The notes beneath the pieces were generated by a model. It did not search any database. It was not told where the DNA came from and worked only from the letters and a program-made list of their open reading frames with translations. Position numbers and translations under genes: made by a program. Below are positions 1,087 through 27,869 of a stretch of DNA of 64,000 bases, piece after piece (the first letter of the stretch is position 1; each line of letters opens with the position of its first letter). The stretch comes from a virus, in the IMG/VR virus record IMGVR_UViG_3300021256_000064, positions 1 to 64,000 of that record; one strand, given 5' to 3'.

Positions 1087-1253
1087 TATTTACTCCTTAC
1101 ATATTTTTTATCTCGATATTGTTTTCTAAATATTTTTAATCTTTTACAACTATTACATTTTGTATGATTGTATTTACAATCCCAACAATTATCATTATCC
1201 CACCAAAACCAATTTGGTGGTTGAGGTCTTGGTTTTCTAAATTTTTTTTTCAT
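1086..1253 (-). CDS. small Cys-rich zinc-ribbon protein (55 aa)
   Basis: MKKKFRKPRPQPPNWFWWDNDNCWDCKYNHTKCNSCKRLKIFRKQYRDKKYVRSK. Its ATG overlaps the helicase stop (TAATG) and its TAA overlaps the next ATG (TAATG). Confidence 0.4.
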   Translation of the reverse strand: MKKKFRKPRPQPPNWFWWDNDNCWDCKYNHTKCNSCKRLKIFRKQYRDKKYVRSK

Positions 1254-2797
1254 TAAAATGCACTCGCCTCTATTTTAGGTGTTACTGTAATTTTTAAATC
1301 TTCTATATCTATTAATTCATAATTATAATTAGTTACGAATATGGGATCAATACGACATATTCCTCTATCAGATTTACACCAAAGAAGAATGTCTTTATAT
1401 CTTCCTCGTCTATTTTTATAAACAGAAATTTTTATATCAGGCATTTCAATACCCATAGAATTAACAATATTTTTTAATGCTTCTCTATCATCTTGACTGA
1501 CTTGAAGCATAATCATACCACAGTCAATTTTATCTGCAATAGCTTTCGCTCCACGAAGTAGATTTTGGTCATATTGTTGAGCTGATACATAATCTGCATT
1601 TAACTGAGTTGCAGACATAACGAATACACCATATTGATTACATAAGTCTTTAATTCTTACACTAATCATAAAAAGAATATTATCTTCTCGTAATCCTTTT
1701 ACTCCAGCTTTTGAACTAATTTCACTAAGAATTTTCATACTTGAATGAATATAATCCATAAAGACATATCTTACATCATATTGACGAATACCAAATTTAA
1801 TTGTATTTTCAATATCTTGAAGTGAAAAATCTGGCAATTTTTTGATATATAAAGGACTTTTTGAAAGAATTGCGGCGGCCTCGCTTACTCGTTCCCACTC
1901 GTCTCCGATATATGTATTCTCAAGGATATGATCTTCATTTACTCCAGATAGAAAAGCAATCATCATAGTTTGAATTTCATCTTCTTCCTGCTCTGTAGTA
2001 ATAAATTGAGTTGGTTCACGAGTTCCATTATCTTCCCATTGTTTTGTTTCAAGATTATAAATTTTATTACAGGCAATAGAACAAGCATCCGCAATCATAG
2101 AACGCGTTTTTCCAACTCCAGTAGCCGCAGACCGCAAATAGAATTTTTTTAATCTAGCCCCGCGATGAATGGTATTAACTAATCTTCCATATAAAGGATA
2201 ACCAACTTCAGGATTTTTTCTTAATCTTTCAAGCAAAGCTAATGCACCATCACCAGCTTGAATAATTTCATCTTCTGAGTTATCAACATATTTAGATTTT
2301 ATTTCTTCTATTTTATCATTAATAAGATTAGCAATTTCATTAATAGGAGTATTGTCAAACCATGTTTCTTGGGCTTCTTTCTTTTTTACATCTAAAATAT
2401 TATCCGGATCATATAACCAAGATAAATTCATTCCAACATTTTTATTATACATCCGTAAAAGGGTCATTTTCTTCATACGATTATAATAATAATCAAAAGC
2501 CGCAAGTTGACACATTTGTTTAACATTCTCTAAATATTCAGAACCTTTATTCATTTTATAAATTGCATATTTTTTTGGACGTTGTTCTAAATATTTTTCT
2601 ATATCTTCAATTGAAATTTGTTTTGCTCCTAATTGATGGAGATTATATATTGAACCAAATAAAATTCTATGAAATTCTTGAGGAAAATCTTGTTCATTGA
2701 ATTTATATTTATCTTCTAAATCTAATAAAGATGGATTTATAAAAACGTCTCCTATTACCTGCATATTTGCAGATATATCTACATACTTTGAACTCAT
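1253..2797 (-). CDS. replicative DNA helicase, DnaB-like
   Basis: 514-aa intact ORF. Walker A motif LRSAATGVGKTRSMIAD and a DnaB-like C-terminal RecA fold. TAA stop. No in-frame TAG. Confidence 0.8.
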   Translation of the reverse strand: MSSKYVDISANMQVIGDVFINPSLLDLEDKYKFNEQDFPQEFHRILFGSIYNLHQLGAKQISIEDIEKYLEQRPKKYAIYKMNKGSEYLENVKQMCQLAAFDYYYNRMKKMTLLRMYNKNVGMNLSWLYDPDNILDVKKKEAQETWFDNTPINEIANLINDKIEEIKSKYVDNSEDEIIQAGDGALALLERLRKNPEVGYPLYGRLVNTIHRGARLKKFYLRSAATGVGKTRSMIADACSIACNKIYNLETKQWEDNGTREPTQFITTEQEEDEIQTMMIAFLSGVNEDHILENTYIGDEWERVSEAAAILSKSPLYIKKLPDFSLQDIENTIKFGIRQYDVRYVFMDYIHSSMKILSEISSKAGVKGLREDNILFMISVRIKDLCNQYGVFVMSATQLNADYVSAQQYDQNLLRGAKAIADKIDCGMIMLQVSQDDREALKNIVNSMGIEMPDIKISVYKNRRGRYKDILLWCKSDRGICRIDPIFVTNYNYELIDIEDLKITVTPKIEASAF

Positions 2798-3306
2798 TCA
2801 TCCTCCTCTTCTAGCCACAAATGCGGCGGGCGCACATACACTCGTGGAGATTCTATTTTTATAATTCTTTCTTTTGGTAATATAAAATTTGAAACATCTT
2901 TCTCTTTATTTATTAATTGAGCTTGATAAAGTGTATAATAATAATTTAACGCTTGTTTATATATATAGGGAATAATACCAATACTTCCATTACTTTTATC
3001 AAGTGAGTGACCTTCTTTTTCATAATACCATTTAAGAGTTTTTAACATTCCACTATATGTATATTGATTTTCTTTTACATATCTTTCAGCTAATTTTTTA
3101 GTTAATAGATAATTATAATCTTCTCCAAATAATTGTCGAGTATAATCATAAAATGCTGCAATATCTTTTTCTTCTTGCGACATATTTGCAAGATGTTCTT
3201 CCCAACATTTTAAATGAGCATATCTACGTGCGGAGACTTGTTTTGTTGGTTCAATATCTCGATCAAATTGCTCGCCGCAATATAAACATTTTACTTTATG
3301 AGCCAT
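2794..3306 (-). CDS. zinc-finger protein (CxxC...HxxC), hypothetical
   Basis: 170-aa ORF MAHKVKCLYCGEQFDRD...YAHLKCWEEH. ATGA overlap with the helicase start. Confidence 0.45.
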   Translation of the reverse strand: MAHKVKCLYCGEQFDRDIEPTKQVSARRYAHLKCWEEHLANMSQEEKDIAAFYDYTRQLFGEDYNYLLTKKLAERYVKENQYTYSGMLKTLKWYYEKEGHSLDKSNGSIGIIPYIYKQALNYYYTLYQAQLINKEKDVSNFILPKERIIKIESPRVYVRPPHLWLEEEDE

Positions 3307-3402
3307 AAAAATCTCCTTAAAAAAATTTTCTTATTTATATTATAACATAAAAAAAAAGACTTGTCAAAAGAACGGAACTTTGACAAGTCTTTTCATATAT
3401 AA

Positions 3403-25476: not shown

Positions 25477-25488
25477 TATAAATTATTA

Positions 25489-27045
25489 TTACTCAGTTGC
25501 TTCAGTATGATTTGTATCAACGATTTTTCCACCAATGAAAGCAGACATTAAAGATTTTAAATCAATACCAAGTGATTCATTAAGACCTTCAGAAACTTGA
25601 GTAATATTATTAATAATATTACCACTTAATTTTGAAGAATCATCTCCAAACATAACCATCTTTTCAACATTTGCATAGCCTGAACCAATAGCTTCAGCAA
25701 TTGCGGGTAGCTGTTCAAAGTAAATCTTTAACGCGTCTAGTTTTTGCTGTTCACGAGCTGCTTCGCCATATCTTTCCATAGCTTCAGCTTTCTTTAACAA
25801 ACCTTCAGCTTCAGCGGTTGCTTTAGCTCTAATAGCTTCAGCTTCTGCGGCACCTTTAGCCTTAATAGCCTCAGCCTCCGCAGCGCCAGTCTCTTTAATA
25901 GCTTCTGCTTCCTGAATCTTTGCAAATTTTTCAGCTTCAGCTTTAGCTTTTTGAGCTTCCGCACGTCGCTCTGTTTCATACTGTTCGGCTTCAGCTTTCT
26001 TTTGTCTTTCAAATAAATCAGCTTCAGAACTCTTTTGAGTTGCATAAAGATTTGCATCAGACTCCTGTTGAGCAGCGTACTTTTTAGCTTCTGCTGTTTT
26101 CTTAACTTCGGCTTCAAGTTTACGTTCTCTAATACTAACTTCGCGTTCCTGTAAGTCAATTTCTTTTTCTTGTCTTGCAAGTTTTGCATCAGCAGTTGCA
26201 ATTTCGATTGTTTTTTGCTGTTCCTGTTGCTGAATTTCATAAGCAGCATCAGCTTCCGCTTTCTTAATATCCTCAAGCTTCTTTAATTCAGCTTTTTTAA
26301 TTGTAAGCTTATTTTCTCTTTCTGCAATTTCAGTTGCGGCAGCAATCTGAGCTTCATTAGCAGCTTTTCGCGCGTTAGCTTCAGCAACTGCAATTTCTTG
26401 TTCAGCTTTTGCTTTAGAAATAGCAGCATCTTTACTAATTTGAACTGTATTTTGGAGACCTAAGTTATCAATTACTCCATTTTTATCTTTGAAATTCTGA
26501 ATATTAAAAGTTGTTAATTCAAGACCCATATCTCGAAGATTTGGAGTAACATTTTCAATGATTCTTTCTGCGATAATCTTTTTATCACCTTGAATAAGTT
26601 CTTTTAAAGTTGTTTGAGAAATAATTTCTCGGATATTACCTTCAAGAACTGGTCTTACAATTTCCTCAATTTGCTTTGGTTTCTTACCTAAGAATTTTGC
26701 GGCAGCTTTTGGAAGAACCTTCGGGTCAGTTGAAATTGCAAAGTTAGCAACCGCATCTACTAAAATATTAATAGCATCTTTTGTAGGGATGTCATCTTTA
26801 GATGTGAAGTCTGATTGCATATTTTCAAGAGAAAGGAAGTCTACTCTTTCAAGAATAGGAATTACAAAACAACCTTTACCAATAATTGTTTTATTTCCAA
26901 AAGGTCCAGTTACAACCATTGCCATATTTGGCGGAGATTTCTTATACATGGCTTTACCAATCAAGGTAATTACAAGACATAAGAGAGCGATTATTACAAT
27001 AGGTACTAAAAGTGGAATTACAGTAGTTACAATTTTCTAAATCAT
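25489..27045 (-). CDS. flotillin-like SPFH/band-7 protein with N-terminal TM helix; TAG at codon 3
   Basis: RBS AAGGAGA. MI*KIVTTVIPLLVPIVIIALLCLVITLIGKAMYKK...MVVTGPFG...VIPILERV. SPFH domain followed by the EA-repeat coiled coil KAEAEKFAKIQEAEAIKETGAAEAEAIKAKGAAEAEAIRAKATAEAEG. Confidence 0.7.
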
Positions 27046-27110
27046 TTTTTTCTCCTTTTTTAATAAAATAATATTTAGTTTTCAATGTACTTATATATAA
27101 ATAATTTTAA

Positions 27111-27869
27111 TTATTTATCTTCGAAATAAATTGGTTCAAAAGTGTCAAGATTAAATAGACATGCGCGATGAGTAACAAAAGAACCTAAATCTATATCTAT
27201 TTTATGACCGTCACAATATGTATATATCTCATTCTTTTTTTTGGGCGGGATTTCATATCTATTTATATAATAATTTATAGCTAATATTGGAGTGTGACCA
27301 TGAACACAAAATTCATTTTTTTCTCCTCGCCATACTATATCTGAAATATGATCTCTATCCCAAATATAATTATTCATTGGAATAATTACTCTATGATTTT
27401 CAATTAAATGTTCTGTTGTTTGCGGTTGTCTTCCCGCATGACAAAGATAAAATTTATTATCTTTGTTTTCATAAATTGCCCAAGTGGGTAATTTTTTAAT
27501 CTTATCTATTAATTCTTTTTTTTCTTTTTTACTTAACTTTTGAAAAGCTTCAATGGTTTTTGAAGCACCATTGGCTTTCCATATATACATTTCATCTGGA
27601 TATTCCCAATATACATCTTCTTCTGATTCACATTTTAAAATTTTTTCACCAATAGTAGCAATAAAATCTTCATGGTTTCCGCGTAGTAAGGTAATATTAG
27701 GAGTTTCCATTACTTCATATAGAATTTCAAGCCCCGCTGGACCTCTATCTACACAGTCACCAAGACAAAATACAATATCATCTGGTTTAATATAATTTTT
27801 TATTTTTCGCCAAAGATTATATTGAGCGTGTAGGTCTGAAAACACATATGTACTCATTTTATACCTCAT
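27111..27869 (-). CDS. Ser/Thr-phosphatase-like metallophosphoesterase (lambda PPase / ApaH-like)
   Basis: VFSDLHAQY...CLGDCVDRGP...RGNHE...GHT motifs. 252 aa intact. Confidence 0.7.
   Translation of the reverse strand: MRYKMSTYVFSDLHAQYNLWRKIKNYIKPDDIVFCLGDCVDRGPAGLEILYEVMETPNITLLRGNHEDFIATIGEKILKCESEEDVYWEYPDEMYIWKANGASKTIEAFQKLSKKEKKELIDKIKKLPTWAIYENKDNKFYLCHAGRQPQTTEHLIENHRVIIPMNNYIWDRDHISDIVWRGEKNEFCVHGHTPILAINYYINRYEIPPKKKNEIYTYCDGHKIDIDLGSFVTHRACLFNLDTFEPIYFEDK

Follow-up and report, generated by a model that had tools for sequence, protein, structure and literature searches.

Can a phage hold back the translation of part of its genes until a suppressor tRNA is available? This question is raised by the distribution of the codon TAG in positions 1 to 64,000 of the IMG/VR virus record IMGVR_UViG_3300021256_000064 (in the following called the window). 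The original prediction, made from the DNA sequence of this stretch, stated that TAG is strictly avoided in the large replication and RNA-repair genes but abundant elsewhere, and proposed that the TAG-containing genes are gated by suppression. Our analysis points to a phage with two translational regimes, in which a TAG-free set of genes readable by the host would be followed by a TAG-bearing set dependent on a suppressor. We give this reading a probability of about 0.65.

TAG is a sense codon in the phage genome

The window represents 64 kb of a large tailed phage with a genome of about 125 kb (parent contig ENA ERZ28612970, scaffold_240, 124,598 bp). One flank (locus L161) is 100% identical to positions 51588-64000 of the window and the other (L165) belongs to the same contig. 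Together with these two extensions of 8-10 kb, 84 kb of the contig were covered. The base composition is about 30% GC, and within the window the GC skew switches with the strand.

TAG is a sense codon in this genome. When it is read as such, the coverage by open reading frames (ORFs) of at least 100 amino acids (aa) exceeds 90% in most of the window; the standard code leaves large stretches almost without long ORFs. For the 4-kb bins between 28 and 60 kb, reading TAG through raises the ORF coverage from 0.32-0.71 to 0.83-1.0; the longest ORF, 843 codons in the standard code, then has 3,031 codons. No comparable gain was obtained in the window with TGA as sense. All 48 genes end in TAA (40) or TGA (8). 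In-frame TAGs are present in recognisable proteins, among them the tape measure protein (64), tail proteins and RuvC, and they fall within conserved domains, e.g. the Walker A motif of the AAA_24 ATPase and the catalytic site of the GH73 domain of the endolysin.

In-frame TAG codons separate two classes of genes

Eighteen genes with 5,845 codons between positions 1253 and 27869 contain not a single in-frame TAG, yet 203 TAG trinucleotides occur in them out of frame. In the whole window 23 genes (6,984 codons) are free of TAG, with 238 out-of-frame TAGs, and 25 genes (11,935 codons) carry 216. The avoidance is therefore frame-specific. The core genes named by the original prediction are indeed all without TAG and together comprise 4,690 codons, consistent with the "about 5000" given there. 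Its counts for the interleaved genes were all reproduced, too: eight such genes in 1253-27869 carry 1 to 13 TAGs each and 40 together (AAA_24 ATPase 2, PHROG-6721 protein 10, GIY-YIG endonuclease 9, a 95-aa ORF 1, endolysin 13, peptidoglycan (PG)-binding protein 3, holin 1, SPFH protein 1), and the small ORF at 637-1086 contains 4.

A uniform distribution of TAG is clearly rejected. Measured against all Glu-type codons, TAG accounts for 0/447 in the TAG-free genes of 1253-27869 versus 40/196 in the others (P ~1e-44 under a uniform share), and for 0/511 in the 23 genes versus 216/979 in the 25 genes of the window (P ~1e-55). TAG thus makes up 20-22% of the Glu-type codons in TAG-bearing genes. 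A heterogeneity test taking only gene length into account gave G=265 (df 47, p=4e-32). Thirteen of the 25 TAG-bearing genes have a TAG within the first 30 codons (p=0.005 with a Glu-position null, 0.17 with a uniform null).

The genes of 1253-27869 discussed here lie on the minus strand. The DnaB-like helicase (1253-2797, 514 aa, Pfam DnaB_C and DnaB) has no TAG. It is followed by the AAA_24 ATPase (3403-4443, 346 aa, Pfam AAA_24 1.8e-35), which has a ribosome binding site (RBS) and an ATG at 4443 and two TAGs (4414 and 4360). The second of these is located inside the Walker A motif G-x-PKSGKT, at a position where the orthologs have Glu. The YorF-like gene (330 aa) and a 126-aa gene (4460-5890) are both TAG-free, each with a consensus sigma70-like promoter upstream. 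The gene at 5956-6615 (219 aa, 10 TAGs) had been labelled ThyX-like. This label found no Pfam or PDB match; the protein belongs to PHROG 6721, a family for which the function is not known. The adjacent GIY-YIG endonuclease with a coiled-coil N-terminus (6612-7556, 314 aa, Pfam GIY-YIG) contains 9 TAGs.

A replication block without TAG (8013-15128, assigned by Pfam) comprises the NAD-dependent ligase (8013-9977, 654 aa), topoisomerase II A (10060-12402, 780 aa), an 83-aa ORF, topoisomerase II B (12650-14560, 636 aa) and RNase H (14625-15128, 167 aa). Set inside the replication module is a lysis cassette (15237-18546, Pfam), which consists of an endolysin with GH73, Amidase_2, two PG_binding_1 and SH3 domains (15237-17510, 13 TAGs), the PG-binding protein (17526-18212, 3 TAGs) and the holin (holin_1, 18274-18546, 1 TAG). 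The subsequent RNA-repair/vault-like block (18641-27869, Pfam) contains one TAG in all. Its members are a first metallophosphoesterase (18641-19162, 173 aa), an RNA ligase (20290-21522, 410 aa), an MVP-like protein with vault shoulder and repeat domains (21862-24363, 833 aa), an RlaP nucleotidyltransferase (NTase; 24582-25397, 271 aa), an AAA_33 kinase and a second metallophosphoesterase (27111-27869, 252 aa), all TAG-free, and the SPFH/flotillin protein (25489-27045). As predicted, the single TAG of the latter is codon 3 (27037-27039), with a good RBS upstream. Since the TAGs of the AAA_24 gene and of SPFH codon 3 lie downstream of a convincing RBS and ATG, they are not artefacts of start calling.

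Outside this region, the tape measure protein (plus strand, starting at 28056, 3,028 aa, assigned by PHROG tape-measure families) has 64 TAGs and the tail protein following it (plus strand, 1,516 aa) has 30, both within 28056-41989. On the minus strand, the RuvC-like Holliday junction resolvase (42274-42762, 162 aa), preceded by a 12/12 sigma70-like promoter, has 8 TAGs, and the five proteins of a tail/baseplate block (49494-58535; 975, 239, 674, 944 and 160 aa) have 12, 3, 12, 21 and 4, respectively. The DUF2828/DUF7788 vWA protein (58784-60301, minus strand, 505 aa) contains neither TAG nor TTA and encodes Gln by CAG only. Of the genes in the flanks, a Pol III alpha-type polymerase (at least 1,049 codons) and an SF1 helicase, both encoded on L165, are TAG-free, as is a sigma factor; a DHH phosphoesterase, also on L165, has 10 TAGs. 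By function, the TAG-free genes belong to replication and RNA repair and include the sigma factor; the TAG-bearing genes belong to tail, baseplate and lysis and include RuvC, the homing endonuclease and DHH.

The endolysin gene and a 70-aa ORF end with TAG directly followed by TAA (15237-15242 and 42228-42233). At these ends TAG would stop translation before suppression, and one Glu would be added afterwards.

The partition is conserved in related phages

For the conservation counts we considered relatives (30-97% identity) whose own genes include in-frame TAGs supported by homology. Orthologs of the TAG-free genes contained 16 TAGs in 238,124 codons and those of the TAG-bearing genes 743 in 65,646, an about 170-fold difference. 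No TAG was found in the orthologs of topoisomerase II B (46,240 codons, 75 relatives), the ligase (27,133 codons), the RNA ligase (12,668 codons) and the DUF2828 protein (37,512 codons, 75 relatives), two were found for topoisomerase II A (41,299 codons) and one for the MVP-like protein (18,589 codons). GIY-YIG orthologs had 208 TAGs in 8,997 codons, and those of the tail/baseplate block were likewise rich in TAG. This argues that the division into two classes is under selection. The lysis cassette is found near topoisomerase II B only in the closest relatives (3-6 loci), where it keeps its TAGs. As it does so inside the replication block, the TAG status depends on the gene itself and not on the block in which it lies.

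Several TAG-free genes have a higher GC content (0.34-0.40) and differ from the remaining genome in their use of CAG, CTT and AAG. They might thus be recent arrivals from hosts or phages with the standard code, in which TAG has yet to accumulate. However, the AT-rich replication genes are just as free of TAG, and the orthologs are TAG-free throughout the family, as exemplified by DUF2828 and topoisomerase II B. Because the 170-fold difference holds down to 30-50% identity, recent acquisition is ruled out as its cause, and we regard such a mosaic origin as highly improbable.

TAG probably encodes glutamate

Which amino acid is inserted at TAG had been left open by the original prediction (Gln, Tyr, Lys or Glu). 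We aligned the proteins of the window to their orthologs in 160 related loci. The residues opposite TAG were Glu in 414, Lys in 126 and Gln in 83 cases, at background frequencies of 7.1% for Glu and 2.9% for Gln. In the PHROG-6721 protein the TAG columns (positions 80, 155, 162 and 191) show Glu in 27-35 of 36 orthologs; the values for three of them are 35/35, 32/35 and 27/36, the last with TAG in the other 9. Two TAG positions of the GIY-YIG endonuclease have Glu in 30 (plus TAG in 7) and 29 orthologs, and the TAG columns of baseplate proteins have 7-9 Glu, the remainder being TAG. The summed BLOSUM score at TAG columns was 137.8 for Glu and 71.4 for Gln. Among columns conserved to at least 70% the consensus was Glu in 18, Gln in 2 and Lys in 2 cases; at 90% or more it was Glu in 9, Gln in 1 and Asn in 1. 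The likelihood under empirical profiles taken from the same alignments was -2.38 nats per observation for Glu and -2.95 for Gln (n=1,056). In orthologs at least 80% identical, TAG was exchanged with GAA 26 times and with GAG 7 times, versus 6 times with CAA and once with CAG. The exchange of TAG for GAA prevails in these close orthologs, yet it needs two substitutions.

The Glu of the GH73 motif is the catalytic acid, and a lysin with Gln in its place would probably be inactive. In the endolysin, TAG codon 36 (17403-17405) aligns with just this Glu in the motif A-L-E-[ST]-G-W-G (FlgJ 2zyc/3vwo, AQAALETGWG; 7qfu).

Controls with true Glu columns gave Glu (268) and those with true Gln columns gave Gln 118 versus Glu 5. 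A column test carried out locus by locus, all against all, returned Glu in one clade (18/24 columns for the window, 16/26 for L084, 15/21 for L024, 15/19 for L105 and 14/16 for L090) and Gln in sister clades of the family (L042, L091-L101, L158, L160; typically Gln 6, Glu 0-1). The same pipeline yields Glu in one clade and Gln in others, which means that the method separates both meanings. Some relatives gain ORF coverage when TGA is read as sense, too. Neither Trp nor Gly was found opposite TGA, only a few noisy Cys columns; a TGA reassignment was therefore rejected, and these columns serve as a negative control for the method. TAG positions common to the Glu and Gln clades, as expected from a switch in place, were also rejected: apparent coincidences of 15% were due to a single locus, L071, which had been misclassified and shares 99% identity with L022 of the Glu clade.

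Taken together, the alignments point to Glu as the meaning of TAG in the clade of the window, and the meaning appears to differ between related phages. Every amber reassignment in phages found in the literature is to Gln (translation table 15, as in crAss-like phages, Lak and phAss-1). An ordinary phage of this type would also agree with a few TAG columns having Gln as consensus, e.g. codon 10 of AAA_24 and codon 102 of the endolysin, and with the ready interchange of Glu and Gln. But Glu exceeded Gln in every test, both the Gln control and the sister clades show that Gln is detected, TAG occupies the GH73 catalytic position, and the suppressor is among the phage tRNAs least similar to tRNA-Gln. 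We consider a Gln code in this phage very unlikely.

The suppressor tRNA and the tRNA array

An array of 24 tRNA genes begins in the window, where its first 13 members are found (60397-63397, minus strand), and runs on beyond the window end. No tRNA(CUA) was detected by ARAGORN and Rfam among these 13 tRNAs of the 64-kb window. The same contig, however, encodes one 1.2 kb past the window end (L161:6715-6788, equivalent to window positions 65181-65254), with the sequence CGCCCGATAGTGGAGTGGCTTAACACAGCGGTCTCTAAAACCGCGGATCCTGGGTTCGAATCCCAGTCGGGTGA. It is identical to that of the relative L081 (97% identity), and the Rfam tRNA model gives the L081 copy a score of 62.8 bits. The gene adjoins a tRNA-Met and lies near a tRNA-Glu(UUC) and a TAG-free gene of the sigma70 family. 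The latter encodes a complete factor (regions 1.2, 2, 3 and 4; L161:3067-3918) about 4 kb past the window end, by the suppressor-bearing array. The DUF2828 gene and the TAG-rich tail block (58535 down to 49494) have the orientation of the array.

Compared to the tRNAs of its own genome, the tRNA(CUA) shows an identity of 0.66 to tRNA-Trp, 0.605 to tRNA-Glu and 0.53-0.54 to tRNA-Gln(UUG), which is near the bottom. Its D-loop has two extra bases as in the tRNA-Glu of the phage, and it is only this architecture that resembles tRNA-Glu. The variants of L083, L084 and L110 score best or nearly best as tRNA-Glu (top for L084 and L110). Some suppressors of the Gln clades or of more distant relatives are Gln-like: that of L055 is 80% identical to a tRNA-Gln, and those of L158 and L160 are closest to tRNA-Gln. 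Suppressors of the Glu clade are not Gln-like. The assignment of Glu rests on the protein alignments.

The array contains a tRNA whose body is conserved in three near-identical genomes and whose anticodon differs: TTG (Gln) in the window (63095-63168, minus strand), GTA (Tyr) in L081 (7007-7080) and GTT (Asn) in L162 (8680-8754). The loop always reads A-T-NNN-G-C. This might be an anticodon-shifting spare tRNA, which, in view of the neighbouring RNA-repair genes, could serve against anticodon nucleases of the host. A tRNA with the anticodon TTA, which would read TAA, is present in L088 (6561-6635), a tmRNA in L089 (8425-8702), and several distant relatives (L118, L121, L122, L131, L149) have tRNA(CUA) genes of 89-92 nt in which the variable arm is long or an insertion is present. 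The family may contain more code variants.

Codon usage gives a second signal

The two gene classes differ in further codons. The share of TTA among Leu codons was 36% in TAG-free and 63% in TAG-bearing genes (p 2e-25), that of CAA among Gln codons 54% and 83% (p 1e-15), that of ATA among Ile codons 19% and 28% (p 8.5e-5) and that of AGA among Arg codons 49% and 60% (p 6e-5, all Arg codons). All four codons are cognate to tRNAs encoded by the phage. Most other codon families, including GAA/GAG, are alike in both classes; Phe shifts (p=5e-4), Asp and Lys do so weakly. Calculated per gene, an index of the four codons distinguishes the classes (Mann-Whitney p=0.009); its correlation with the TAG share is 0.41 (Spearman, p=0.004).

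Six genes form an extreme tier with almost no TTA and with CAG for Gln: the YorF-like gene (4460-5452), the first metallophosphoesterase (18641-19162), the RNA ligase (20290-21522), the MVP-like gene (21862-24363), DUF2828 (58784-60301) and the sigma factor (L161:3067-3918). Their GC content is 0.34-0.40; the DUF2828 gene uses AAG 31 times versus AAA 4 times, and the sigma factor gene contains no TAG, no TTA and no CAA. This extreme codon dialect may mark an immediate-early tier. As a whole, the split in codon usage fits the expectation that TAG-free genes suit the tRNA pool of the host, and TAG-bearing genes the pool after expression of the array. We regard it as likely that a clade of large rumen/gut Bacillota phages has reassigned TAG to Glu by means of its own tRNA(CUA), with sister clades using Gln, and that TAG is the extreme member of a set of codons dependent on phage tRNAs (TTA, CAA, ATA, AGA) defining a late regime.

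Two proposed translational regimes

In the mechanism we propose, the genes without TAG and poorer in TTA, CAA, ATA and AGA (helicase, Pol III alpha, ligase, topoisomerase II, RNase H, the RNA-repair/vault-like proteins and the sigma factor) would be readable by the machinery of the uninfected cell. The 24-tRNA array including tRNA(CUA) would then accumulate, and TAG would be read as Glu. Only afterwards would the genes for tape measure, tail, baseplate, lysis, RuvC, DHH and the homing endonuclease, in which about one fifth of the Glu codons are TAG, be fully translatable, and selection would remove TAG from every gene needed before the suppressor. The charging enzyme is a guess: GluRS of the host might load the tRNA(CUA) with Glu without subsequent amidation by GatCAB. 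Many Bacillota lack GlnRS and form Gln-tRNA through GatCAB amidation of Glu-tRNA(Gln). A suppressor accepted by GluRS but not recognised by GatCAB would deliver Glu. To obtain half the yield of a tape measure protein with 64 TAGs, a read-through of 0.5^(1/64) = 0.989 per codon is required. At about 99% read-through per codon, RF1 would have to be neutralised or swamped.

Transcription signals were considered as well. Terminator-like hairpins surround the lysis cassette at 18566-18599 (5' of the holin RBS), 18242-18267 and 15190-15220 (after the endolysin stop). A hairpin runs straight into the RBS of the holin, PG-binding and GIY-YIG genes with no promoter-like site between; the lysis cassette accordingly lies between terminators without a promoter of its own. 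Many TAG-free genes are preceded by a unit of hairpin, TTTTTTATAAAAATT and TATAAT(ATA), located at approximately 3339-3394, 5492-5520, 9990-10062, 15154-15220, 21770-21845 and 25410-25477. These units are predicted to give each early gene an insulated promoter. The strict A-tract/T-tract/TATAAT motif was observed 11 times (1.2 expected) and sigma70-like sites matching at least 11 of 12 positions 12 times (4.5 expected), those with 12/12 preceding two TAG-rich genes. We rejected promoter classes as the separator of the gene sets: both motif types are real, but they precede both classes.

Several observations weigh against the two-regime reading. The A-tract/T-tract/TATAAT motif precedes TAG-free genes (starts at 5452, 15128, 24363, 27869 and 60301) as well as TAG-rich ones (28056, 37439, 42762). 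With the same motif in front of both classes, transcription signals do not separate them; should those promoters be active early, the TAG-rich genes would be held back at the level of translation. Some TAG-free genes (43723-44967) sit among late-looking genes, and some recombination enzymes carry TAG. Glu is found opposite 39% of TAGs versus 52% of true Glu codons, with Lys somewhat over-represented; TAG sites may be less constrained, or decoding may not be fully uniform. Within its own genome the tRNA(CUA) is closest to tRNA-Trp and only then to tRNA-Glu, and its isotype as judged by family-specific tRNA hidden Markov models (HMMs) and pairwise identity was mixed (Trp, Cys, Glu, Lys) and not decisive. 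Neither a release factor nor a synthetase gene was seen among the annotated genes of the 84 kb. The gating model of the original prediction is plausible and agrees with four indirect lines of evidence, namely the gene functions, the presence of tRNA(CUA) in the genome, the conserved partition and the codon covariation; the order of early and late is deduced from gene functions and codon covariation.

The pattern might alternatively reflect constraint without a switch, with TAG kept out of early genes as truncating and spreading in late genes by neutral drift under AT pressure (GAG to TAG), without any role in timing or lysis. In line with this, TAG (22% of Glu-type codons) is more frequent than GAG (11.5%) in this genome of 30% GC, and TAG counts per gene vary widely among relatives (the PHROG-6721 protein has 10 here, 26 of its 36 orthologs have none). 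The N-terminal enrichment of TAG described above is weak, and an excess of TAG in the lysis genes over the structural genes is not significant (p=0.13). On the other hand, the TAG share of enzyme genes (PHROG 6721, GIY-YIG, RuvC) exceeds that of structural genes (odds ratio 2.65, p=5e-4), TAG occurs at SPFH codon 3 and within the first 10 codons of several other genes, and the insulation of the lysis cassette is twofold, by terminators and by TAG. We regard this explanation as possible, though on the whole unlikely.

Efficiency instead of timing might also underlie the avoidance, if TAG is kept away where accurate or abundant translation is needed, with suppression competing with RF1. The TAG-free genes at 43723-44967, beside tail genes, could encode abundant structural proteins and would then agree with it. 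Yet the tape measure protein, the longest and most termination-sensitive one (3,028 aa), has 64 TAGs, and the low-copy topoisomerase and ligase are the strictest avoiders, which makes this explanation unlikely. We prefer two translational regimes.

Relatives, host and further features

IMG/VR holds a large family of relatives with genomes of 100-200 kb. The family comprises roughly 300 contigs. Among 50,697 records of deposited phages there was no close relative; a megablast search with 25 kb gave no match, and topoisomerase II B reached an identity of at most 35%. The endolysin and holin domains (Pfam) correspond to a lysis cassette of the Gram-positive type, and no relatives of the endolysin were found among species-representative genomes. 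The DUF2828 profile matched 36 contigs of metagenome-assembled genomes, mostly phage-sized and binned with Bacillota (Bacilli, Clostridia, Erysipelotrichaceae, Mollicutes-like), with few outliers. The sample name, which begins with "SHIW14-1", would indicate an origin of the contig from sheep rumen. The lysis domains and the binning of the relatives are suggestive of a Bacillota-type Gram-positive host of the rumen.

One phage combines MVP-like, SPFH/flotillin and DUF2828/DUF7788 vWA proteins with an RNA ligase, an AAA_33 kinase, an RlaP NTase and two metallophosphoesterases (18641-27869 and 58784-60301). With the 24-tRNA array, these genes look like a module for repair or protection of tRNA or other RNA with vault-like components. 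The DUF2828/DUF7788 vWA protein is possibly TROVE/Ro-like.

The tape measure protein contains a Hint/intein-like domain (CFAAGTK...VVHN) near its C-terminus (36360-36797, plus strand). HN is followed by Arg and not by Cys, Ser or Thr, and the domain resembles a bacterial intein-like autoprocessing domain more than a splicing intein. A stretch of about 1.3 kb (45881-47163) between the end of a plus-strand gene and the end of a minus-strand tail-fibre-like gene has no convincing ORF in either code and no Rfam match.

Comparison with known systems

In recoded gut phages early genes use the standard code and late and lysis genes are recoded, for which a control of lysis timing was proposed (Borges et al., 10.1101/2021.08.26.457843). 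The clades described there (crAss-like, Lak, Agate, Jade and others) share with our phage the TAGs in structural and lysis genes, the TAG-free replication genes, a tRNA(CUA) and a low GC content. Recoded modules scattered along the genome (their Jade, Sapphire, Agate and Lak) and a strongly recoded homing endonuclease are shared, too. Our guess is that their Agate clade (154 +/- 27 kb) comes nearest, its genome size and ruminant source being compatible with this phage. In contrast to those phages, TAG aligns here with Glu and covaries with TTA, CAA, ATA and AGA, and instead of their code-change module (release factor/synthetase), none of which was seen in 84 kb, a sigma factor is located near the tRNA array. 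In phages with a code unlike that of the host, only TAG to Gln and TGA to Trp were observed by Borges et al.; Peters et al., Cook et al. and Babkin et al. treat TAG as Gln as well. Our full-text literature search, which was not exhaustive, found no report of TAG to Glu in phages.

phAss-1 ("Phassvirus"; Babkin et al. 2023, PMC10607447) is likewise a tailed phage, found in gut viromes and about 136 kb in size; it has many tRNAs, among them tRNA-Sup(CTA), and TAG in 41 ORFs, mainly virion genes and some DNA-processing enzymes. There, TAG encodes Gln according to terminase alignments and tRNAscan-SE. UAR or UAG is Glu in nuclear codes of ciliates (peritrichs and an uncultured ciliate), as cited in PMC11687900. 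These are eukaryotic nuclear genomes recoded throughout, with altered eRF1, unlike a virus with a second code in a standard-code host.

Precomputed Pfam matches to YorF, YorH (weak), YonG_N and DNA_pol3_alpha (in SPbeta-like Bacillus phages, the Pol III alpha-type protein is YorL), together with a genome of about 125-140 kb, may point to a distant SPbeta-like lineage. The similarity, known here from the Pfam matches, is only distant, and an integrase did not turn up in the 84 kb covered. SPbeta is not known to depart from the standard code.

The Glu assignment, if true, would make this clade the first reported case outside the ciliates in which amber is read as Glu. Translating all TAG-recoded phages by table 15 would then place Gln where Glu belongs, including catalytic residues such as the general acid of the lysin. 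The view that phages reach only TAG to Gln and TGA to Trp, an argument for uniquely hijackable GlnRS and TrpRS of the host, would need revision. Related phages with differing meanings of TAG would provide a natural system for code change and genetic isolation between phages. A Glu code may arise where hosts amidate Glu-tRNA to Gln-tRNA, leaving a suppressor that is not Gln-like as Glu-tRNA.

In Streptomyces, genes for late functions depend on the late-available Leu-UAA tRNA encoded by bldA, a cellular developmental system without reassignment of a stop codon. Our phage resembles it in encoding a tRNA-Leu(UAA) and in its use of TTA, which accounts for 63% of the Leu codons of TAG-bearing genes and for 0-9% of those of the most extreme TAG-free genes. 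The covariation of TAG with TTA, CAA, ATA and AGA suggests that the whole tRNA array and not the suppressor alone separates early from late translation. The partition of TAG by gene is thus a clear further case of the published layout and not new in itself, whereas TAG to Glu is probably a new code variant.

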